Source: a virus (lineage: Duplodnaviria; Heunggongvirae; Uroviricota; Caudoviricetes). Taken from it: DNA of 19,525 nt. The notes under the pieces are model-generated. The model had not been told where the DNA came from. It saw nothing but the letters and a program-made list of their open reading frames with translations, and ran no database searches. Of the stretch, positions 1 to 19,525 are shown in pieces. The DNA is taken from the IMG/VR virus record IMGVR_UViG_2579778674_000015, positions 1-19,525 of that record; one strand, given 5' to 3'. The translations under genes were made by a program, and so were the position numbers. Each line of letters opens with the position of its first letter. Position 1 is the first letter of the stretch.

Positions 1-512
1 TTCACGCTCAATCTCACGACGAGTCATCAGGCCTTTCCATTGCTTACCGCCAGCGTATATCCAGCGACGTAGCTGGTCACATGCGCCTTTGATATCGCCC
101 TGGTTTATTTTGCGAAGAAGCGTCGATGTTCTGAAATTGCCAGCACCCACGTTGTAGACGAACGAGTAAAGAGCGCCGCGCGTTGTTTCCGGTATATCGA
201 CTTTGATGTACGGGTTAATTTGTCTGGCAACCGTGGCAAGGTCTTTATTCAGGAGGGCTTTGCATTCTGCTTCGGTATACGTTTTACCGAGCATGATGTC
301 TTTTCCGGTGTGTCCGTGACATACAGTCCATACGCCAACGATATCTTTGTATGGTATGTAGCTGACACCTTGCCAACGATATCTTTGTATGGTATGTAGC
401 TGACACCTTCCAGGCCATCGTCACCACTTGGGCCAGTGATTAACACTGATGCTATAGCAATTGCTCCGCCACCAATAGCAGCAGCAACTGCTTTTCGTAA
501 TGATGGAGGCAT
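1..512 (-). pseudogene. R: SAR-endolysin (phage 21 R-type lysozyme), frameshifted by a 38-bp tandem duplication; last ~7 codons lie beyond the window start
   Basis: Minus-strand ATG at 510-512 gives [47 protein letters not shown] (Gly/Ala-rich signal-anchor-release segment, E35 and D44 of the E-D-T triad), then the frame is lost. Conceptually deleting one 38-bp copy (334-371 = 372-409) restores ...[12 protein letters not shown]...[20 protein letters not shown] through to position 1. Start overlaps the holin stop (ATGA). Track ORF 249..512 is only the N-terminal fragment. Confidence 0.85.
334..409. repeat. Perfect 38-bp direct tandem duplication (2 copies) inside the endolysin gene
   Basis: gccaacgatatctttgtatggtatgtagctgacacctt occurs at 334-371 and again at 372-409 with no mismatch. 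38 is not a multiple of 3, so it shifts the frame after codon 47. Confidence 0.95.
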
Positions 513-727
513 TATTCACCTCTCGCAGCCTTGCGCTTATCTTCTTTAATCTTGAAATAAAGGTTTGTCAGGTACGTCAGCAGGCCAAATACCAGACTAC
601 CCAGCACACCTATTGCCGCCCACTGTGAGGGCGTGACTTTATCGAGCAACTGTAAAAACCAGTACCCGGCACTACCTGCTGAGGTGCCATAGGCGACACC
701 CGTTGTTAACTTATCCATGGATTTCAT
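512..727 (-). CDS. S: Pinholin (phage 21 S-type class II holin) with dual-start motif
   Basis: [71 protein letters not shown] (71 aa): two predicted TM segments, charged C-terminus, Met1-Lys-Ser-Met4 dual start. SD-like GAGGTGG upstream of ATG at 727. Track ORF 512..790 is an upstream in-frame extension. Confidence 0.85.
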
Positions 728-794
728 AACCCCACCTCGCAGATGCGGGTGCTGTGTAATGGAAATAAAAAGGCCACCTGACGTGGCCACCAGA

Positions 795-1847
795 TTATTT
801 CCCCACCAGCTCGTTTATCTCTTTCACTGTCTGGTTAAACCGCTCTGACTCAAGCTCAACACCTAAGGCCCGACGCCCCAGCGCCATTGCTGCTTTTATT
901 GTGGAACCGGATCCCATAAAAAAATCAGCAACCAGATCACCAGGTCGACTACTGGCATTGATTATTTGCCTGAGCATATCCGCCGGTTTCTCACACGGAT
1001 GTTTACCCGGGTAGAACTGAACGGGTTTATGCATCCAGACATCGGTATAAGGCACGGAGACTGATACGGAGAAATAGCGCCGGAGAGATTTAAACTCATC
1101 CAGCAATTCAGAATATTTGCGATTCAGTGAATCATAAGATGCCACCAGCTGGTGGTGTGGTTGTTCCAGTTGTTGTTCCTGAAACTTCTCTGCCGCTATA
1201 CGGGAAAACAGTGCCTGTAACTTCCGATAGTCAGCCTCATTCGGCAACTGCCACTGACTGGCACCAAACCAGTGGGAAACCATATTTTTCTTACCTGTGG
1301 CTTCGGCAATTTGTTTTGCCGTTATACCCAGTTCGGCACGAGCATCCCTGAAATACGATATCAGCGGTGCCATTATGTGCTGTTTGAGTTCCCTTTCTTT
1401 TGCCGCATAGCCGTCACTTTTGCCGCGATATGGCCCCTGGTAATGTTCAGCAAACAGAACGCGCTCTGTGGCAGGAAAATATGCGCGCAGACTTTCTTTA
1501 TTACACCCATTCCAACGTCCGGACGGCTTCGCCCAGATGATATGGTTAAGCACGTTGAAACGTTCACGCATCATGATCTCAATATCAGATGCCAGGCGAT
1601 GCCCACAGAACAGGTAAAGGCTTCCGGCAGGTTTTAACACCCGCCAGAACTGGGCCAGACAGTGGTCCAGCCACTTAAGGTAATCTTCGTCCCCTTTCCA
1701 CTGATTGTCCCAGCCGTTGGGTTTCACCTTGAAGTACGGCGGATCGGTAACAATCAGGTCAATGGAATCATCAGGCAGGGACTGAATAAAATGCAGGCAA
1801 TCAGCGTTGATTAAATCAACACTGTTTATTTTTACAGTATTTTTCAT
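795..1847 (-). CDS. Orphan DNA N6-adenine methyltransferase, beta-class (DPPY motif IV N-terminal, FxGxG motif I C-terminal)
   Basis: 350-aa ORF with IVTDPPY near residue 30-36 and FFMGSGST near the C-terminus (motif order IV then I). No adjacent restriction endonuclease ORF. No obvious SD before the ATG at 1847. Confidence 0.8.
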
Positions 1848-1997
1848 GGATCAGTAAGCGTAACTCTGGTAGGCTCACTCTGCTTTTGCGCTAAAGCAGT
1901 GGGCCGTGGTTCGCTTGTGACCAGTAAGCATGAGCGAATGGCTGGCAGGTGCTACCAACACCCACCAGCCGCCCATTTTCACAGCAGGAAACCGCCA

Positions 1998-2225
1998 TTA
2001 CTGGCAGCGTCTGAATTTATTCCCGTACCCGCCGTTATCCTTCGCCAGCCCCGCCAGAACTAACTGAGTCAGTATTAACTGGCACCGGGCTTCGCTTACT
2101 CCGGTAGTTCTCGTCATCATGCGTGGCGTTACCCACTTGTCAGCAGGTAAGAAATGAAGGACTGCGGCGGCGGTTTCTGTCATATCTTGCTGTTTTAGCA
2201 TGTCTTTTTCCCTTCTGGTTAACAT
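1998..2225 (-). CDS. Hypothetical small protein (75 aa), first ORF after the putative late terminator
   Basis: ATG-initiated ORF MLTRREKDMLKQ... with a possible HTH-like segment (TRTTGVSEARCQLILTQLVLAGL). Weak RBS, no recognisable family. Confidence 0.35.
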   Translation of the reverse strand: MLTRREKDMLKQQDMTETAAAVLHFLPADKWVTPRMMTRTTGVSEARCQLILTQLVLAGLAKDNGGYGNKFRRCQ

Positions 2226-2323
2226 GACATACCAGTAACTCTTGTCTAAAAAGCCAGCAAGATAAAAAGTCAGTATTCACGACCACCAGCGTGTTTACTG
2301 TACTGCACCAAGTTTACAGGTAC

Positions 2324-2349
2324 AAAAAAACCCGCTCAGTGGCGGGTTC
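2324..2349 (-). terminator. Rho-independent terminator downstream of the Q-like gene (tR'-like)
   Basis: Minus-strand transcript reads aacccgc-cactga-gcgggtt followed by a 7-U tract (plus-strand A-run 2324-2330). Confidence 0.6.
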
Positions 2350-2394
2350 TTAAATCTTATCAACGGTAGACATACAAAGCCCATCGTTGTGAAA

Positions 2395-2423
2395 ATCTTA
2401 TCCATATTTTTTGAAAAACGCAA
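2395..2423 (-). promoter_or_regulatory. Candidate late promoter (pR'-like) just downstream of Q
   Basis: Minus strand: -35-like TTGCGT (plus 2418-2423), 17-nt spacer, -10-like TAAGAT (plus 2395-2400). Would give a ~60-nt RNA ending at the 2324-2349 terminator. The 10-mer GATAAGATTT is repeated in that leader (plus 2352-2361 and 2393-2402). Confidence 0.3.
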
Positions 2424-2454
2424 GCATCATGTCGTCATCTTCGGCGAAAACCAT

Positions 2455-3207
2455 TTATCTTGTCACCTTTCTCAATTGTATCTCTGCATATGCTTCTTCC
2501 TGCCAGCACTTTGTAACCAGTTTATCAATGACATCTGCATATCCTTTGTACCACTGATAATCCGTCAGGTCTGGTACCAGCTTCTGGACATGAAGCCGCG
2601 CCAGTGTGGTTGGTAAACGGCTAAACCGGTTTCCATTGCAACGCCCACAAACCTTATAAACAGGCGTGCCATGAAGCCGGGTTCTTTTTTCATCCAGGAC
2701 AATACCTTTACCCTTACACCCTCTGCACGCTGTGCTGACTTCTCCCTTACCATGACAATGCTGACACAGTTCCTTCACCCACTCTTCCTTGATAACAGAT
2801 TCCCCGCTTCTGGAGTGTTTCACCACTTCGCGCAATACATTATGAAATCCAGTACCAGCACAATGCTCACAGCGAGCCTTACTTGCCGCAGACCTGGAAT
2901 AATCAGCAAAGGCAAAATTCACAAGGTAAGGGATGATCTGTAACCGGGTTTCTTCACTCAATTTGTTCAATGTCGGGTTATCCAGTGCCATCGCGTAATT
3001 GAGCAGACCTTCAATCGCAAACTGAGGATCCTGAACACCAACTTTTGCCAGGAATAAGGCAAACCCAAGCGGTGCTTTCGACTGCACCATCCCCTGCGCA
3101 GCCATTACATCCGTAATTGTTAAACCACCAGAGCCTGTCGCCGGTGCGTCATCGCTCAATTTTGGAGATTTCGGGGAGTAATATTTCGGTAAGGCTTCAA
3201 GGTTCAT
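2455..3207 (-). CDS. Q-like late antiterminator candidate with four DnaJ-type CxxCxGxG repeats
   Basis: Last gene before the terminator and lysis block. Probable start MNLEALPKYYSPKSPK at 3207 with GGAGAA SD. Contains CEHCAGTG, CQHCHGKG, CRGCKGKG, CGRCNGN. Track ORF extends to 3249. Confidence 0.55.
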   Translation of the reverse strand: MNLEALPKYYSPKSPKLSDDAPATGSGGLTITDVMAAQGMVQSKAPLGFALFLAKVGVQDPQFAIEGLLNYAMALDNPTLNKLSEETRLQIIPYLVNFAFADYSRSAASKARCEHCAGTGFHNVLREVVKHSRSGESVIKEEWVKELCQHCHGKGEVSTACRGCKGKGIVLDEKRTRLHGTPVYKVCGRCNGNRFSRLPTTLARLHVQKLVPDLTDYQWYKGYADVIDKLVTKCWQEEAYAEIQLRKVTR

Positions 3208-6899: not shown

Positions 6900-7718
6900 T
6901 CACCCCCTGAATCCTGCCGGGATCTGGCTGTAGTCCACGTTGTCGTAACTGGATTTGAAGTACGGGTCCTCACGTCTGGCTGCAGATACCGCAGGAACTT
7001 CCCAGGATTCTTCGAAATGACGATCCGGACCAAAGAACGTGACAGCCTGTTTCACAAATTGTGTGCCGCTGTTACCCATCGCAGATACCCAGCCCGCATA
7101 GCGTTTCACACCTTCCAGCATGGTTTCGGGGTTTACCCCCTCATTCAAACGGGCTTTCCAGGCTTTGAAGGCTGCAGATTTTGAATTGCCACCAGCACGT
7201 TTGGGATATGCCAGCCATGCCTGCTCAAACTCCGGAGAATATTCCGGTCGGTTTGAACGAACTCGCACGGACTCATCAACTGATGCACCAACAGCTATTG
7301 GTTCATTGACTGGTTCTTTGACTGGTTCAAAAGAGTGACTGGTTCTGGGTGAATCTCCTGCACTACCCCCTGGTGCAACTCCTGCACTACCTGGTGAATT
7401 TGCTGCACCAGATAGTGAATTATTTGCACTACCACCTAGTGAATCTCCTGCACCATCCAGATGAAGGAGATAGATATTACTTGAGTTACCTTTTTCACCT
7501 TTCCGGGTGACTTTTTTTACCAGCCCGGACTCACAAAGGGCCGCAATATGATTCATCACAGAACGTTTGCTAATCTCGCACTGGTCAGCAATATGCTGGT
7601 AGCTGGGCCAGCACTCACCCTGATCGCTGGCATTATCAGCCAGCTTGATCAGAACCAGTTTTCGCAATGGATTACCCACTCGAATTTTCATCGCTTTAAC
7701 CATCAGCTCCATACTCAT
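6900..7718 (-). CDS. Replication initiator-like protein (N-terminal winged HTH, repetitive Gly/Ser/Ala/Pro linker, C-terminal domain)
   Basis: 272 aa; GGAGGTG SD. N-terminal LRKLVLIKLADNASDQGECWPSYQHIADQCEISKRSVMNHIAALCESGLVKK is an initiator-type wHTH. The linker is encoded by the DNA repeats at 7307-7458. Lambda O analogy is positional. Confidence 0.5.
   Translation of the reverse strand: MSMELMVKAMKIRVGNPLRKLVLIKLADNASDQGECWPSYQHIADQCEISKRSVMNHIAALCESGLVKKVTRKGEKGNSSNIYLLHLDGAGDSLGGSANNSLSGAANSPGSAGVAPGGSAGDSPRTSHSFEPVKEPVNEPIAVGASVDESVRVRSNRPEYSPEFEQAWLAYPKRAGGNSKSAAFKAWKARLNEGVNPETMLEGVKRYAGWVSAMGNSGTQFVKQAVTFFGPDRHFEESWEVPAVSAARREDPYFKSSYDNVDYSQIPAGFRG
7307..7458. repeat. Iteron-like direct repeats inside the initiator gene (candidate origin)
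   Basis: TGACTGGTTC at 7307, 7319 and 7336; then five 21-24-bp units starting 7348, 7372, 7393, 7414, 7438 (ggtgaatctcctgcacta / ggtgcaactcctgcacta / ggtgaatttgctgcacca / agtgaattatttgcacta / agtgaatctcctgcacca). Confidence 0.5.
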
Positions 7719-9662: not shown

Positions 9663-10337
9663 ATGAAAACAATCCATGACATCCGGCGGTCTAACGCCAG
9701 AAAACTGAGAGATGGTGTTGGCGGGAATTCTTCCTTTGCCACCATGATTGATCGCGAGCCAACCCAGACCAGCAGGTTTATGGGAGATGGTGCTACTAAA
9801 AATATCGGTGACAGCATGGCGCGGCACATCGAAAAATGTTTCGACCTGCCTGTCGGATGGCTTGATCAAGAACACCAGACCACGAACATCACAAAAAAAC
9901 CTGATGTTTCAATCACTAACAAACAAATAACGTTAGTCCCTGTCATATCATGGGTACAGGCCGGAGCATGGAAAGAAGTTGGCTATTCTGAGGTTGATTT
10001 GAGCACAGCAGAAACTTACCCCTGCCCTGTACCCTGTGGCGAAATGACTTATATCTTGCGGGTGATTGGTGATTCAATGATTGATGAGTACCGCCCTGGA
10101 GACATGATTTTTGTTGATCCCGAAGTCCCTGCCTGCCACGGTGACGACGTTATTGCATTGATGCACGATACAGGCGAAACCACCTTCAAGCGATTGATAG
10201 AAGATGGAACACAGCGTTATCTCAAAGCATTAAACCCAAACTGGCCTGAGCCTTACATTAAGATTAACGGTAATTGCTCTATAATTGGTACAGTGATTTT
10301 CTCGGGAAAACCAAGAAGATACACAATAAAGGCCTAA
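9663..10337 (+). CDS. CI/C2-type phage repressor (N-terminal HTH, C-terminal S24 LexA-like autopeptidase)
   Basis: 224 aa; C-terminal ...LVPVISWVQAGAWKE...LRVIGDSMIDEYRPGDMIFVDPEV...TFKRL...INGNCSIIGTVIF with Ser in GDSM and Lys in TFKRL; N-terminal XRE-type HTH. Confidence 0.85.
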   Translation: MKTIHDIRRSNARKLRDGVGGNSSFATMIDREPTQTSRFMGDGATKNIGDSMARHIEKCFDLPVGWLDQEHQTTNITKKPDVSITNKQITLVPVISWVQAGAWKEVGYSEVDLSTAETYPCPVPCGEMTYILRVIGDSMIDEYRPGDMIFVDPEVPACHGDDVIALMHDTGETTFKRLIEDGTQRYLKALNPNWPEPYIKINGNCSIIGTVIFSGKPRRYTIKA

Positions 10338-12922: not shown

Positions 12923-13275
12923 ATGTTTTCGAAATGGAAGGGTTTCTTCGCGGGAAATGTGTACCGCGAGATCTGAAAGTGAACGAAACAAATGCTGAGT
13001 ACCTGGTACGTAAATTCGACGCGCTTGAAGCTAAATGTGCGGCACTGGAAAACAAAATAATACCAGTGTCAACTGAACTGCCACCAGCAAATGAAAGTGT
13101 TCTGTTATTTGATGCTAATGGAGAAGGCTGGCTGATTGGCTGGCGTTCTCTCTGGTACACCTGGGGACAAAAAGAAACCGGAGAATGGCAGTGGACATTT
13201 CAGGTCGGGGACCTTGAAAACTTCAATATCACTCACTGGGCAGTAATGCCCAAAGCGCCGGAGGCTGGAGCATAA
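12913..13275 (+). CDS. Hypothetical protein (DUF551-like Trp-rich C-terminus)
   Basis: 120 aa, GGAG SD, start overlaps the upstream stop. C-terminal GWLIGWRSLWYTWGQKETGEWQW...THWAVMP. Confidence 0.55.
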   Translation: MRMNVFEMEGFLRGKCVPRDLKVNETNAEYLVRKFDALEAKCAALENKIIPVSTELPPANESVLLFDANGEGWLIGWRSLWYTWGQKETGEWQWTFQVGDLENFNITHWAVMPKAPEAGA

Positions 13276-13895
13276 TGACCACATTTACCAATAAAGAACT
13301 GATTAAAGAAATCAAAGAACGAATCAGCAGCCTAGAGGTTCGAGACGATATTGAGCGCCGTGCTTATGAAATTGCTCTGGCATCGCTGGAAGAGGAGCCG
13401 GTGGCATGGCTGCATTCAGACAATGGCTTAGGTATTCCGGCAATAACCAGGAGCAAAAACATTGCTGACAGTTGGTTATCAATGGGCTGGTATGTTCAGC
13501 CGCTATATATAGCCAAGCCAGTACTGGTGGTGCCAGATGCTCGTCCGTCTTTAAATAATGGCATAGTCGGTTTTGATGAAGGCTGGAACGCCTGCCGCGC
13601 CACCATGCTTCATGGTGCCAAACCTGTAAGCCAGACTTACAAGTTGAACAAGCTGTCGGGCAACTCTCCGGTAACTCAGGATGGTTGGATAAGCTGTAGT
13701 GAGCGAATGCCGAACGATAAACAGTATGTTTGGTGTTGGGGTAAGTCTTACGGCTGGACTGAGTGCGATACCTTCGAAGGGTATTACGATTGGTCGAGAA
13801 ACAAATGGTGGGCAGTTACTGACGATGGGGAAGAACCGGCATCGAAAGTAACCCACTGGATGCCGCTACCGGAGCCACCGCAGGAGGTGAAGTAA
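13275..13895 (+). CDS. DUF551-like protein
   Basis: 206 aa; start overlaps the upstream stop (TAATG). C-terminal WISCSERMPNDKQYVWCWG...WWAVTDDGEEPASKVTHWMPLPEPP. Confidence 0.55.
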   Translation: MTTFTNKELIKEIKERISSLEVRDDIERRAYEIALASLEEEPVAWLHSDNGLGIPAITRSKNIADSWLSMGWYVQPLYIAKPVLVVPDARPSLNNGIVGFDEGWNACRATMLHGAKPVSQTYKLNKLSGNSPVTQDGWISCSERMPNDKQYVWCWGKSYGWTECDTFEGYYDWSRNKWWAVTDDGEEPASKVTHWMPLPEPPQEVK

Positions 13896-14291: not shown

Positions 14292-17200
14292 TCACACGCT
14301 GCGCCTTCGAGAATATTCATTTAATCGCTGATAACGAACATCTTGCTCCAGTTGTGGAGCAGCTTGAACAATTTGAAGCAAGCATTGCCCCAACTCTCGA
14401 GGCCCCCAGTGTTGTTCGGCAATCACGGCATTCAGCAGGGATAGAGCGTCCGCAGGATATCGGCTGCAAATATCTGATTCTAGCAAAAGGCGAACGTCGT
14501 AGCTAAGGTGTTCGAGCGGTTGCAGCCAGTCCTGCACCACTGCCAAAGCCGCCGGAAATTCACCTCGGGCAGCAATCACCATACGAGTCAACGATTCGGA
14601 TATGCGTGGGGTGGCCAAGTTGCGGGACTTTGGCCAAACCTGTTGCCAAAATGGCTGGACACGATTTTTCCAATACTCCTCGCGCTGATCGCCCGCACCT
14701 TCAAGTGCCTGGTATAACGCCTGCGCGGCTACCTCCAGACCTTCTTGTGGAAGAGCACTAATTGCCGTTCGGAACTCCTCCACGGTATATCCCTCGGTAG
14801 GGCCCAGAGCTGCATAAGTCAGGAAAATAGCGAATTGCTGCCGGTGCTCGCCAAGATCAGAATAGTGATTGGCGCTCTCCAAAAAATCTGACTTGAAAGC
14901 TATCAGCAACGGTTCATACAGGCGTGGCGACCAGAGGAAGCCTTCCCACACAGCTTTTGCTTCGACGGGATTACTCCAAGCAAACAAGGGCAATAGATAC
15001 TGTTCGGTCCAAGGTCGATCTACGCGAAAAAATGCGATCAGCCGCGACCCCAGCAACACCCGACCATGGCGGAATAGCTCTATCTGTACATTACACAATT
15101 TGGTGAAAAGTGTTTTCAATTCAACAGGAAGCAAATCATTGTCATTCGGGTTCTGTTTGAACCATAGGGTGATCAGTGATTGCGTGACATGCCCAATGGG
15201 ATGATTGATCGCCGTAGAAACAGGATCATAGGTCTCAATTCCGTTTCGAATGGTGCTAGACTCTGGGCTTGTTTCTATCATCAGAACCCGACGACAAAGG
15301 GCCAGTAGAATCTCCTCGTGGCAGAGGATGGTCTTCGAAGCCTCCTCCATCCACCAAGTGACAGCGTGGGAAATCTCCTGAAGTACTGCGTCAGGCATGT
15401 CAAGCACCAACGGTGCGGCGTACCGCCACGAACGCAAAATCATCCCTGGTTCAGCCCAAGTCTGCAGAGCTTCACGCCACCGACCAACAGGCCACACATC
15501 ATCTTGTGATAGTTTACGTAACGCATACAGACTGTGAAAAAAGCGCGTACGGCAAACATCACTCCAAGTGTCCTCATAGAAAGGCAGTCTTTCTGGCATA
15601 GGCTTTGCGAGCCATTGCACTAATTCCTGCCACTTACGGGGCGCAATGTCGACATCTATACTCTCCTCGAAGCCTGGATCACCGGTTCCGCTCATCCAGT
15701 GAGAGAATTCATCACGCTCGTTGGTTGCCAGTTGCCATTTTGGGTATGCTGTGGATATTTCCGTCAAACGTGTAGCCGCAGACTCTCCCAAAACAAGGCC
15801 CGCTCCCCTGAGCTTCGCTAGACACAACCAGACGGAATGAGCCACCAAATAATGCCACCTGTCTGCTTCCAAATTATCCTCGTACATCTCGCGCGGAGGC
15901 CCTGCCAAGATAGCAGTTTCCAGACGCTCTTGTGCAATTCCTGTCAGATGTCGTCCCTGCAAAACAAACAGTCTGAATACCTCTCGCCGAGTATCCGTGG
16001 CCCACAACCACCATGAACCGTCCTCTAACAACCAATTAACCCACCGCTCAGGTGGTATGCAGTTGTCTTGGCTTGCGGCAAACAGTGCCAGACGTTTGAA
16101 GGTGGGATATGGCAACTCAAACCAATTCTGAGCAATGCGCGAGGCCTGATCGCTGTCTTTGGCTCGAACGGCTAACCATGAATCCCGAAGTAATTCAATC
16201 AGGCTCACCCAATCGCGGAACCCCCGGTTCTGCCAGTGCGGAGTGATGGACGGCAAATCCCAATGCGAGCGGTCGTGACGATCGTCGGACTCTCCCAACT
16301 CCCGCAACAAGTCCAGTGCATCACGCAACAACTGCTGAAAATCTTCCAACAGGTATGGCAAGGACGATTTCCATGACTCGTCAGCAAGGTCGAACAGGGT
16401 TGAACGTACGTAATCAGCAGTCAGCACCAGCTCCCAATCCACCAATTGCTTGATTCGCAAGGGTTCATCAGTGCTGCTCGAATCGTCTTCACTATAGCGA
16501 AACGGCCGCCTCAACATAACCTTGGGAGAAAGCAACCCGCGTAACTCCAAGCGCAATGTAGTCGTCAAGCCTTCATTCTTTAAGCGGTTTTGCCAACGAT
16601 ACAAATCCAGGTTCTGCAATGGCGATTTCACACGACCACTAAGCAGAAGCCGCCATAAAGTAGACATAGGTGGACCAGGAATAGCCAGGGGGGAATGCAA
16701 GAGAATTTCATCTAACTCAGAAGTCTTACGCTCCCGCATCAGTGCTGCTAAGCGATCTAGTTCGCTCTCAATCAGAAACATCCAACGGTCGTGTATTTGT
16801 CCGCCGCGTTCAGCAATCCATATGATCAACCTAGGGTCGCCCAGATAACGAACTAGCCAACGGGCTATATGGGACATTACGTCATCCCATTTGCTAGCAC
16901 TGACACATCCAGAAACCAGCGACATCTGCGGGGCCAGCTCATAGGGCGCAGGACGCTGAACCAGACTGAATCGGAGTTTCGGGTCAATTTCGACATGCGG
17001 AGATACACAAAAGCGTGGCAGATCGCTGTATTTAAATCGTTCGTCCGAGAAAGCTTTCAATAACCAATCCAGCGGCGGTGCAGGATTGAGTTCCGCAAAG
17101 CGTTTTGCTGGTAAACCTGATTTATCTGACAAGGCCCACAACATCCGACCAACGAAATCGTCCTGACGAGTGCTGTCCTGCGGGCGGGCCAGAGCATGTT

Positions 17201-18119
17201 TGACGACTATAGCCTTTTTGCCCTGTATACCATCTCGATAAGTATCTGCCCAAGCGTGCAACGTTTGATGCAGCACTGAATGATCAGTGGAGCCCGCCGG
17301 TACGGTGTAAAGGATAGGAGTGACCCCTTTGGCCTCCCACTCGATGGCTTTCCGGTGCTCCTGCCCCGGCTCACACTCCCCCAGTGCCCATACTTGTGGT
17401 GTGACTTCACCGAGCCTCCGATCTGCTGCAAGCGCATCCATCATGTAGCGCAGTACCGGGTCGTTGATGCTGTAGCCAACGAAGCAGACCACATAGTTAC
17501 GAAATAACTCACTCACAAAGCGAGCTGCCCAACGCTCAGTGAGATAAGCCAAGCCAAAGTCACCGCTGGTAACAACCAGACGATTCAGGGCAGTATCATC
17601 CGCCTTTTCCGGTAACAGCCCATGCAGGTATACAAGTCCATCCCAGCGGCTGTTTTTTGGAATTGGCAGCATCGGCGCTACATAGGCCTGAAAAGCCTGG
17701 CCTGTACGTTTAGCTGCCACATGAAAGAGACGGTCAAAGTTGGTAGTGACCAATCGAAGGGCACCCTCGCGGCTACGGGCTAAACGTAACAGCGCCGCCT
17801 GAGTATCAATAGCGCCCCTACGACGGAGCTTTGGCTTAAGGGCTTTTTCCAACGCGCGTCGGACGGCTATACGCTGCCCTGGTAAGCGCCGTTCCAGCAA
17901 ATCTAATGTGCCGTCAAATTGCCCACGCTCGAAAACCTCACGCTCAATTTCTGAAAGTGTTGTTCCGTTCCTCTGGTAAATTAGTTCTACCAACCCTTTG
18001 AAACCAGGTAAACCAGCAGGGTAGGAAATGCCTGCTCCACAGAAGAACACAACGCGCCCTTCCTCGTGCGCCTGCAAAAGCTCATCAGGAATATCAGGGC
18101 CGTTGGTAATGAATTGCAT
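14292..18119 (-). CDS. Large SIR2-domain protein (1275 aa): N-terminal sirtuin-like NADase domain plus ~1000-aa unassigned Trp-rich C-terminal region; candidate single-gene anti-phage defence
   Basis: Uninterrupted 3.8-kb ORF, strong SD AGGAGG 7 nt before ATG at 18119. N-terminus has VVFFCGAGISYPAGLPGF (glycine-rich NAD-binding loop), LVTTNFDRL (N127) and LVYLHGLL (H166), matching the Asn/His arrangement of SIR2 defence NADases. The remainder shows no motif I recognise. Confidence 0.8.
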   Translation of the reverse strand: MQFITNGPDIPDELLQAHEEGRVVFFCGAGISYPAGLPGFKGLVELIYQRNGTTLSEIEREVFERGQFDGTLDLLERRLPGQRIAVRRALEKALKPKLRRRGAIDTQAALLRLARSREGALRLVTTNFDRLFHVAAKRTGQAFQAYVAPMLPIPKNSRWDGLVYLHGLLPEKADDTALNRLVVTSGDFGLAYLTERWAARFVSELFRNYVVCFVGYSINDPVLRYMMDALAADRRLGEVTPQVWALGECEPGQEHRKAIEWEAKGVTPILYTVPAGSTDHSVLHQTLHAWADTYRDGIQGKKAIVVKHALARPQDSTRQDDFVGRMLWALSDKSGLPAKRFAELNPAPPLDWLLKAFSDERFKYSDLPRFCVSPHVEIDPKLRFSLVQRPAPYELAPQMSLVSGCVSASKWDDVMSHIARWLVRYLGDPRLIIWIAERGGQIHDRWMFLIESELDRLAALMRERKTSELDEILLHSPLAIPGPPMSTLWRLLLSGRVKSPLQNLDLYRWQNRLKNEGLTTTLRLELRGLLSPKVMLRRPFRYSEDDSSSTDEPLRIKQLVDWELVLTADYVRSTLFDLADESWKSSLPYLLEDFQQLLRDALDLLRELGESDDRHDRSHWDLPSITPHWQNRGFRDWVSLIELLRDSWLAVRAKDSDQASRIAQNWFELPYPTFKRLALFAASQDNCIPPERWVNWLLEDGSWWLWATDTRREVFRLFVLQGRHLTGIAQERLETAILAGPPREMYEDNLEADRWHYLVAHSVWLCLAKLRGAGLVLGESAATRLTEISTAYPKWQLATNERDEFSHWMSGTGDPGFEESIDVDIAPRKWQELVQWLAKPMPERLPFYEDTWSDVCRTRFFHSLYALRKLSQDDVWPVGRWREALQTWAEPGMILRSWRYAAPLVLDMPDAVLQEISHAVTWWMEEASKTILCHEEILLALCRRVLMIETSPESSTIRNGIETYDPVSTAINHPIGHVTQSLITLWFKQNPNDNDLLPVELKTLFTKLCNVQIELFRHGRVLLGSRLIAFFRVDRPWTEQYLLPLFAWSNPVEAKAVWEGFLWSPRLYEPLLIAFKSDFLESANHYSDLGEHRQQFAIFLTYAALGPTEGYTVEEFRTAISALPQEGLEVAAQALYQALEGAGDQREEYWKNRVQPFWQQVWPKSRNLATPRISESLTRMVIAARGEFPAALAVVQDWLQPLEHLSYDVRLLLESDICSRYPADALSLLNAVIAEQHWGPRELGQCLLQIVQAAPQLEQDVRYQRLNEYSRRRSV

Positions 18120-18169
18120 TCCTTTTCCTCCTATCCAATGTGCACGTTCATTCGAGTAAATGAAGGCAA

Positions 18170-18215
18170 GGGGTTACATCTTATTATACCGACCGTGCAA
18201 ATCCGGCTTCCTAGC
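18170..18215 (-). promoter_or_regulatory. Candidate promoter for the SIR2 gene in the int-SIR2 intergenic region
   Basis: Perfect -10 TATAAT on the minus strand (plus 18183-18188), ~60 nt upstream of the ATG; only a poor -35 (TTGCAC-like, wrongly spaced). Confidence 0.25.
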
Positions 18216-18301
18216 AAGCTACTTTACTTGCCAACTCATAATGTCCGAACTCCGAACAAAGCGGACTGCTAGATTTGATTGCGTTCTAGCTACGCAAAAT
18301 A

Positions 18302-19525
18302 TCATTTCGAGCCTGAACGAGTACAAGTAACAATCGATTCAACTCTCTCCCACCATGCCTGGTAGGCTTTACGCTGTTCTTCTAGATAATCACTCTTGTC
18401 ATAAACTTGCCATACACCTGGCAGTTTATGACCGAGCATTATTTCAGCAATATGAGGCGCAGTAAGATCAGAAAAGTTTGTTCGTGCTGTTCGTCTCAAA
18501 TCATGAAGAGACCAGTGAGGAAATTGATACCCCAAACGCCGCCATGCGTACTGCATTAAATTGTAAGGCAGCGACTGCAATGATGTCCGACCAACTGGTT
18601 CCCTGCTTCCTTCCTTAGTAAAAAGCATATCGGAACCGTTGTTCATAGAGATAACGTATTTTATAAGCTCTTCAACCGGTTCAATAATGGGCCGCTTTAG
18701 CGGTTCGCCTGTTATATCCCCTGTCTTATGTCGTTCTGGTGGTACAGTCCATATTTTATTAATGAAATCAAAATCGTCCACCTTGGCAGTAATTAGCTCT
18801 GAACTACGGCAACCAAAATGCAGCAATAGTTTAATGAAGGCCCGGTATTTAGGAACCATTCGAGAACCATCGATCGCAGCATAAAGGATTTTAATTTCAT
18901 CATGTGTCAGAAACCGTTTCTTCTGACCTTTACGGATATCCATATCTTTACCCGTGATATCCGACAGCGGGCGAGTTTCAATGAGCTTTCTCTTATACGC
19001 CCAGACATGGGCCTGCTTTGCGTTAATTAGCAATCGGTCTGCTATTGCTGGAGTCTTAGTGCTAAGAGGCTCCAGGACTTCTAACCAATCATGCAATGTA
19101 GCTGCATCGTGAGGGATATTCCCGATTTTAGAGAACAGGTGCAGCTCAAACGAGCGGAGTATCTGTTCAGAACCTTTTTTATTTTTTACACAATATGCTT
19201 CATACCAAGCACGGATCACAGATTCTACCGTCATGGCTTCAGTAGCTTTACGTTTTTCTGCCAGCTTGACCAATCGTGGATTGCGGTTTGACTCGAGTTC
19301 ACCACGAAGACGGATAACTTCTTCTCTGGCCTCTTTTAGTCCAGTTGCCGGGTAAGTTCCGATATCAAGACGCTCACCTTTCCCCGCCCACTGATAACGA
19401 TATTGGAACACTACGCGACCTTTCGGTGATACTCTAACAGACAGACCATCACGATCGGATTTAACCAAAACCTTATCACGTTCCTTTCCAACGACTGAAC
19501 GCAACCACGCATCAGACAGCGCCAT
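18302..19525 (-). CDS. int: Tyrosine integrase (P4-type, N-terminal arm-binding domain plus catalytic domain)
   Basis: 407 aa; start codon is the last three bases of the window (MALSDAWLRS...). Typical N-terminus (GLSVRVSPKGRVVFQYRYQWAGKGERLDIGTYP), HDLRRTARTN box and C-terminal Tyr region (WQVYDKSDY). Confidence 0.9.
   Translation of the reverse strand: MALSDAWLRSVVGKERDKVLVKSDRDGLSVRVSPKGRVVFQYRYQWAGKGERLDIGTYPATGLKEAREEVIRLRGELESNRNPRLVKLAEKRKATEAMTVESVIRAWYEAYCVKNKKGSEQILRSFELHLFSKIGNIPHDAATLHDWLEVLEPLSTKTPAIADRLLINAKQAHVWAYKRKLIETRPLSDITGKDMDIRKGQKKRFLTHDEIKILYAAIDGSRMVPKYRAFIKLLLHFGCRSSELITAKVDDFDFINKIWTVPPERHKTGDITGEPLKRPIIEPVEELIKYVISMNNGSDMLFTKEGSREPVGRTSLQSLPYNLMQYAWRRLGYQFPHWSLHDLRRTARTNFSDLTAPHIAEIMLGHKLPGVWQVYDKSDYLEEQRKAYQAWWERVESIVTCTRSGSK

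Follow-up and report, generated by a model that had tools for sequence, protein, structure and literature searches.

The endolysin gene rrrD, located at one end of the analysed DNA (a stretch of 19,525 nucleotides, hereafter the window), contains a perfect 38-bp tandem duplication that shifts its reading frame. This duplication is probably a scaffold-join or gap-closure artefact, most likely absent from the bacterium itself. Most likely, therefore, it does not represent a real biological feature; at best, it is a private recent mutation without wider significance. The window corresponds to positions 2–19,526 of contig AYKD01000050.1 in the draft genome of Escherichia coli FCH1, and the NCBI contig itself carries the duplication, which thus belongs to the public record and was not introduced into the window.

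TRF detected one array at positions 334–409, with a period of 38, 2.0 copies, 100% matches and no indels, and direct string comparison revealed that positions 334–371 and 372–409 are identical. The array consists of exactly 2 × 38 bp without a partial third copy, and no other perfect tandem repeat of similar length was found by TRF in the 19.5-kb window; a perfect 38-bp tandem repeat far exceeds chance. Copy A (372–409, minus strand) represents gene nt 104–141, i.e. codons 35–47 (E35 to G47), in the native frame. Copy B (334–371, minus strand; GCCAACGATATCTTTGTATGGTATGTAGCTGACACCTT on the plus strand) is the second copy in the gene direction and is read out of frame. At the junction of the two units, ...GCTGACACCTT is directly followed by GCCAACGATATC..., and the junction 30-mer is GTAGCTGACACCTTGCCAACGATATCTTTG; the single-copy configuration is CATAC-[38-mer]-CCAGG. 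Both bases flanking the array (C/G...T/C) differ from the matching unit ends, T and G, and the register is therefore unambiguous, with no microhomology at the junction.

As written, the endolysin ORF (249–512, minus strand; start codon ATG at 512–510) encodes an 87-aa product that is identical to RrrD through G47 and comprises the SAR domain, E35, D44 and a 40-aa out-of-frame tail. No Pfam match, and hence no PF00959 domain, was obtained with this product. The rest of rrrD (1–333, minus strand) contains codons 48–158 of the intact protein, out of frame, and reaches the contig end, which lies a single base (gene nt 475) beyond the window. With one 38-bp copy deleted, the frame stays open for 158 codons, up to the edge of the window. 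When completed to 165 residues from a sibling genome, the restored endolysin aligns over residues 1–165 with E. coli RrrD (PDB 4ZPU, E = 6e-110) and with the phage 21 lysozyme (3HDE, E = 4e-109), sharing approximately 98% identity with each, and contains a PF00959 (Phage_lysozyme) domain at residues 34–156 (1.8e-45). The locus is thus a disrupted R21/RrrD-type GH24 SAR endolysin gene as deposited, and a full member of this type if the duplication is an artefact.

The catalytic motif of these lysozymes is E-X8-D-X5-T (PMC9239132), and it is complete in the restored endolysin (E35-X8-D44-X5-T50). The as-written product retains E35 and D44 but has Ser at position 50, with everything downstream out of frame, and its triad is incomplete. 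By coincidence, the shifted codons 48–50 (window 362–370) place this Ser where the catalytic Thr sits (D44-IVGKV-S50); it is without functional meaning because the remaining domain has been lost. The weakly hydrophobic SAR segment at the N-terminus, rich in Gly and Ala, is located upstream of the duplication and is unaffected, residues 1–30 being identical to those of 3HDE and 4ZPU. Rescue by an internal start or another frame was considered and rejected: in the alternative frame, Q takes the place of E35 and the first start is M61, downstream of the triad, so that an active fragment cannot be made. Judged from its coding sequence, the gene would be an endolysin null if the deposited sequence is true. 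The sequence-only reading had described two identical 38-bp copies, a phage-21-type SAR lysozyme that is restored up to the window edge when one copy is removed, and a frame that breaks after residue 47 with loss of T50 and the globular domain; these points were confirmed by TRF and string comparison, by the 158-codon frame, and by translation and the Pfam search, respectively.

The remainder of the window is well preserved. The S21-type pinholin gene essD (512–727, minus strand; 71 aa) is intact, contains the dual-start motif M1..M4, overlaps the endolysin start (ATGA) and matches PF04971 (P21 holin S) at 2e-35. It adjoins the endolysin gene, an arrangement that characterizes SAR endolysins, whose release by depolarisation is predicted here. 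The gene for the late-gene antiterminator Q (2455–3207, minus strand), which drives the lysis cassette, is intact, and a DNA methyltransferase gene (795–1847, minus strand) is located between Q and the cassette. Also intact are the genes for a CI-like S24-peptidase repressor of the ymfK type (9663–10337, plus strand), the Dsr1 SIR2-domain anti-phage defence protein (14292–18119, minus strand; 1,275 aa; PADLOC score, 2,732 bits) and a tyrosine integrase (18302–19525, minus strand), at whose start codon the window ends. In total, 23 of the 23 other annotated genes, including the pinholin, Q, replication, S24 repressor, Dsr1 and integrase genes, are intact, YfdQ A9T being the only amino-acid change. 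Late genes are absent from the window because the contig ends there, and their absence is thus uninformative.

Two further features of the window were recorded. The HTH_36 gene (6900–7718, minus strand), a putative replication-initiator gene, contains imperfect tandem repeats of 12 bp and 21/24 bp at 7299–7453 (2.6 and 4.6 copies, respectively, by TRF), which resemble the iteron-type origin inside lambda O. At 13275–13895 (plus strand), a 206-aa DUF551 ORF is open, and the gene caller of the collection predicts it intact in several siblings; RefSeq PGAP annotates two partial pseudogenes in this stretch of OX030701.1 and E. coli O177:H21.

Closely related prophages are present in complete genomes, with 99.96–99.97% identity to the window. 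With one copy of the 38-bp unit removed, the window aligns to the OX030701.1 prophage without gaps, with 8 SNPs in 19,487 bp and none in positions 1–3067, and to the prophage of E. coli O177:H21 (Leiden) with 5 SNPs and an IS insertion that is present in the O177:H21 genome. The OX030701.1 prophage, which adjoins yjjG, has an undamaged rrrD, after which come Rz and an entire lambda-like module for terminase, portal, capsid and tail. Comparison with sibling strains, which the sequence-only reading had proposed as a check, thus revealed that the siblings are single-copy with intact endolysins and that the duplication is private to the FCH1 record. The same lysis cassette is also found in plaque-forming phages: Escherichia phage Ayreon (MF807953.1), which infects K-12, is 99.9% identical to the window over positions 1–800. 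In the 5' part of Q (3106–3187), six synonymous differences from OX030701.1 are clustered within 82 bp; O177:H21 carries the alleles of the window at these sites, which indicates that the patch arose by natural recombination and not by an error of assembly.

The prophage belongs to a widespread lambdoid group at the yjjG site that carries Dsr1 next to the integrase gene, and it does not depart from known kinds. The integrase and Dsr1 pair (14292–19525), on the yjjG/tRNA-Leu side, is very widespread, and the exact integrase protein was found in 5,161 index blocks. This arm is joined to varied immunity regions (S24/YdaS, HTH_3/Cro and P22_Cro types), and such variation beside a conserved defence-carrying arm illustrates lambdoid mosaicism. 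In OZ039352.1 (L088, 11407–15233), Dsr1 is split into ORFs of 303 and 989 aa by an apparent frameshift, whereas it is intact in the window and in the nine other genomes shown.

The duplicated allele was found in the FCH1 record only. The lysis region is present in 4,447 of 5,426 complete E. coli genomes, at a median of 2 and a maximum of 9 places per genome. In this set, every best match to window positions 1–1900 is split in two and spans 1,862 bp, i.e. 1900 minus 38, and a 60-mer centred on the junction yielded no one-piece match. A junction-specific 23-mer had no exact match in the GTDB species-representative genomes, IMG/VR or the JGI metagenome contigs. An inherited lesion shared by a lineage is thus not seen, with 0 of 5,426 complete genomes and none of the genome, viral and metagenome contigs scanned carrying it. 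At the protein level, the 87-aa product forms a singleton cluster among approximately 15 billion proteins, its exact sequence occurs in one contig only (AYKD01000050.1 of GCA_000511545.1, gene at 250–513 of 31,929), and no other protein found by homology search with it contains the duplication junction. An uninterrupted 495-nt gene is present in all of the best 80 rrrD loci of IMG/VR, and the sequenced phages matching the cassette, among the matches listed, are all single-copy. Contigs of the Logan type (k = 31) would break at a 38-bp repeat, and their silence is therefore uninformative.

Other frameshifted rrrD alleles were identified in approximately 30 clusters; these contain 1–2-bp indels, encode products of 69–76 aa and end at the same out-of-frame stop. 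Dozens of distinct alleles of this kind exist, several in complete chromosomes and many in Logan or ENA contigs, a set that may contain sequencing errors as well as true pseudogenes.

Strain FCH1 (BioProject PRJNA224245) was isolated from human faeces at a Dutch pig farm and sequenced by de Been et al. in 2014 (PMC4270446). It was sequenced on a HiSeq 2000 (90-bp paired reads, 500-bp insert, ~116× coverage) and assembled into 162 scaffolds by SOAPdenovo v1.05, with k picked for each strain from 21–63 (PMC4270446). The same paper reports no clonal sibling of FCH1, nor does it present FCP1, a strain from that farm, as clonal with FCH1 (PMC4270446). SOAPdenovo1 produced 156 and 392 contig-level errors on two GAGE bacterial genomes, as quoted in the SOAPdenovo2 paper, and v1.05 lacks the improved gap-closure module; according to the authors, the old module could pick wrongly between highly similar repeats (PMC3626529). 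In the FCH1 draft, the duplication lies approximately 335–410 nt from the contig end. The contig ends 23 nt before the rrrD stop codon, the window starting one base inside it, and the terminal base of the contig is a common paralogue polymorphism at rrrD nt 475 (V159/I159).

Several lines of evidence argue for an artefact. The error record of SOAPdenovo1 and its older gap-closure module are in its favour, as is the fact that the gene recurs within a genome (median, 2 places), which makes it a point at which such assembly graphs fragment. The sole structural difference from the siblings in 19.5 kb sits within 410 nt of the contig end, a placement that would occur with a chance of approximately 2% for a uniformly placed real mutation; the duplication is confined to this draft, at positions 335–410 of 31,929, as would be expected of a false tandem duplication at a join. 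If the array consists of two true substrings abutted, the cut must fall between the copies, with the main piece ending at gene nt 141. Among the paralogues, gene nt 141 (C26/T42) and nt 475 (G43/A23) are frequently polymorphic; each is the last base included, in the same phase, and only 23 of 498 rrrD sites (4.6%) have an MAF of at least 0.2. The location of both termini on variable sites is expected if allele-specific graph edges were written to the last specific base. The endpoints also lack microhomology and direct repeats for replication slippage. The absence of the junction elsewhere was counted for an artefact as well, yet it is equally expected for a private recent mutation. The sequence-only reading had called the duplication either recent or an assembly artefact, and this caution was correct; the artefact, which it named only in passing, is here judged the more probable of the two.

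Direct observation covers the provenance of the contig, the position of the duplication at its end, the recurrence of rrrD within a genome, an allele seen in no other record, a window that otherwise matches intact siblings, and termini on paralogue-variable sites; the join itself is what we infer. The several near-identical copies of rrrD within an E. coli genome would fragment the assembly graph at this gene. Read pairs or gap filling may then have set a terminal piece of approximately 372 bp (gene nt 104–475) beside the main contig, whose last base is gene nt 141, and the 38-bp overlap of the two pieces would have been written twice instead of being merged. A chimera of different paralogues at the join was considered and rejected, both sides matching one sibling haplotype with 0 differences in window positions 1–3067. 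If so, the real gene would be an ordinary intact endolysin gene in an ordinary, probably inducible lambdoid prophage.

Some observations count against an artefact. The flanks, nt 103 and 142, are invariant in 68 paralogues. Adjacent SOAPdenovo contigs overlap by k, which is odd and hence not 38; on these two grounds, an unmerged de Bruijn overlap with k−1 = 38 was rejected as a simple explanation. No paralogue with an exact block at nt 142–474 bounded by differences at nt 141 and 475 was found among 66 IMG/VR rrrD genes, a sample biased to near relatives. Moreover, reads must supply every k-mer of a genuine de Bruijn contig, and an artefact therefore requires a scaffold-level join at this precise location. 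With a k of at least 39, which is plausible for 90-bp reads, a real 38-bp duplication would be assembled without difficulty, and frameshifted rrrD alleles are common in public assemblies. The source paper states neither the k used nor a gap-filling step, and gives no read archive accession (PMC4270446).

These points leave a real mutation as a possible but distinctly less likely explanation, i.e. a very recent, private 38-bp tandem duplication in FCH1 that disables the SAR endolysin of an otherwise intact lambdoid prophage. The duplication is, after all, present in the deposited sequence; in the product as written, T50 and the entire PF00959 domain are missing, with no active fragment from the alternative frame; and the zero divergence between the copies, together with only 5–8 SNPs from the siblings, fits a very recent event. 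The other frameshifted rrrD alleles in public data, including complete genomes, indicate that loss of this gene is ordinary, and assembly at a k of at least 39 would reproduce a true duplication faithfully. Against this stand the occurrence of the duplication in a SOAPdenovo v1.05 draft, where it affects a multi-copy gene and lies 335–410 nt from the end of a contig, the boundary on a paralogue-variable site, the lack of microhomology for slippage, and the absence of a second isolate or assembly with the duplication.

Two mechanisms that could generate such a mutation were examined and rejected. Slippage between short direct repeats does not apply, as there are none at the endpoints and the nearest GCCA repeat would give a unit of 42 bp, not 38 bp. 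A hairpin-driven mechanism would have only a marginal quasi-palindrome to act on (MFE, −14.7 kcal/mol; z = −1.78; 10 of 200 shuffles fold as well); the 38-bp unit starts at the loop/stem boundary of this quasi-palindrome, without priming homology.

If the mutation is real, the pinholin would, on induction, still be expected to depolarise and kill the cell. Without muralytic activity there would be no burst and the virions would be trapped, unless the endolysin of a co-resident prophage complements the defect; precise loss of one repeat copy would restore the wild type. In the pinholin/SAR-endolysin pathway, induction of an endolysin-null prophage kills the cell without bursting it.

Readings that invoke selection are, taken together, very improbable. 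One of them holds that the prophage has been domesticated, i.e. that the host has retained it for the repressor, integrase and Dsr1 genes while selection has disabled lysis; although these three genes are intact and integrase-Dsr1 modules occur very widely at the yjjG site of E. coli, we regard this as highly unlikely. All 23 other genes, including those for the pinholin, Q and replication, are intact, the OX030701.1 sibling has a full lambda-like structural module and an intact rrrD, and the same cassette occurs in plaque-forming phages. The lesion is common to no other genome, which means that there has been no vertical retention and that nothing suggests inheritance or selection. Furthermore, an intact pinholin would still kill the induced cell, so that endolysin loss alone would benefit the host little. 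The multiple lesions or module loss that characterize cryptic prophages were not found among the 23 other genes, the rest of the FCH1 prophage being on other contigs. The sequence-only reading was therefore right about the molecular consequence of the duplication; its view of the element as domesticated is not supported, given the lack of decay in the other genes, the intact siblings and a lesion shared by none.

Still less credible is a reversible off-switch, in which the perfect 38-bp repeat would toggle the endolysin by precise gain of a copy and its precise loss at a low rate, most induced cells dying without phage release and rare revertants restoring a fully lytic prophage: loss of one copy would indeed restore the exact wild type, and RecA-independent deletion occurs between short tandem repeats, but there is no second occurrence in thousands of cassette-carrying genomes, and the single-copy allele has no microhomology or repeat scaffold favouring recurrent duplication.

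The biological importance of the duplication is small either way; frameshifts in prophage endolysin genes are commonplace as a form of decay. A real duplication would amount to one private loss-of-function mutation, in one faecal isolate, of a well-understood R21/RrrD SAR endolysin gene; it would represent textbook early prophage decay, reversible by losing one repeat copy, and would open no new question. If the duplication is an artefact, it would wrongly mark as lysis-defective a lambdoid prophage that carries Dsr1 and appears intact, and perfect short tandem duplications near the contig ends of old short-read drafts should not be called pseudogenisation.

Compared with R21/RrrD (PDB 3HDE/3HDF and 4ZPU), the restored protein has the same SAR segment, the same E35/D44/T50 triad and the same PF00959 domain, whereas the deposited gene has a 38-bp tandem duplication of codons 35–47, a frame shift after G47 and an 87-aa product without the lysozyme domain. 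The pinholin of the window has the same M1/M4 dual start and the same overlap with the endolysin start as the phage 21 pinholin S21 (S68/S71); relative to the phage 21 pinholin/SAR-endolysin pathway, there is no difference in the holin, and only its endolysin partner is interrupted in the window record. Phages Ayreon and vB_EcoS-569R4 and the yjjG-site prophages of OX030701.1, O177:H21 and ETEC H10407 are 99.8–100% identical to the window over the cassette or the whole window and share its gene order, but, unlike the window, all have a single 38-mer and an intact endolysin. The other frameshifted rrrD alleles share the N-terminus, alternative frame and stop of the deposited endolysin, but their 1–2-bp indels are at other positions and none contains the duplication junction. 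The array also resembles the false tandem duplications at scaffold joins or closed gaps of short-read drafts from the SOAPdenovo v1 family, with which it shares location in a repeat-rich gene, the contig-end neighbourhood, zero divergence, the lack of microhomology and variable-site boundaries; it differs from known false duplications at joins in that here we infer the join and that the repeat length does not correspond to a permitted k. The SOAPdenovo authors describe gap-closure errors in repeat regions, with which a false tandem duplication close to a contig end agrees (PMC3626529).
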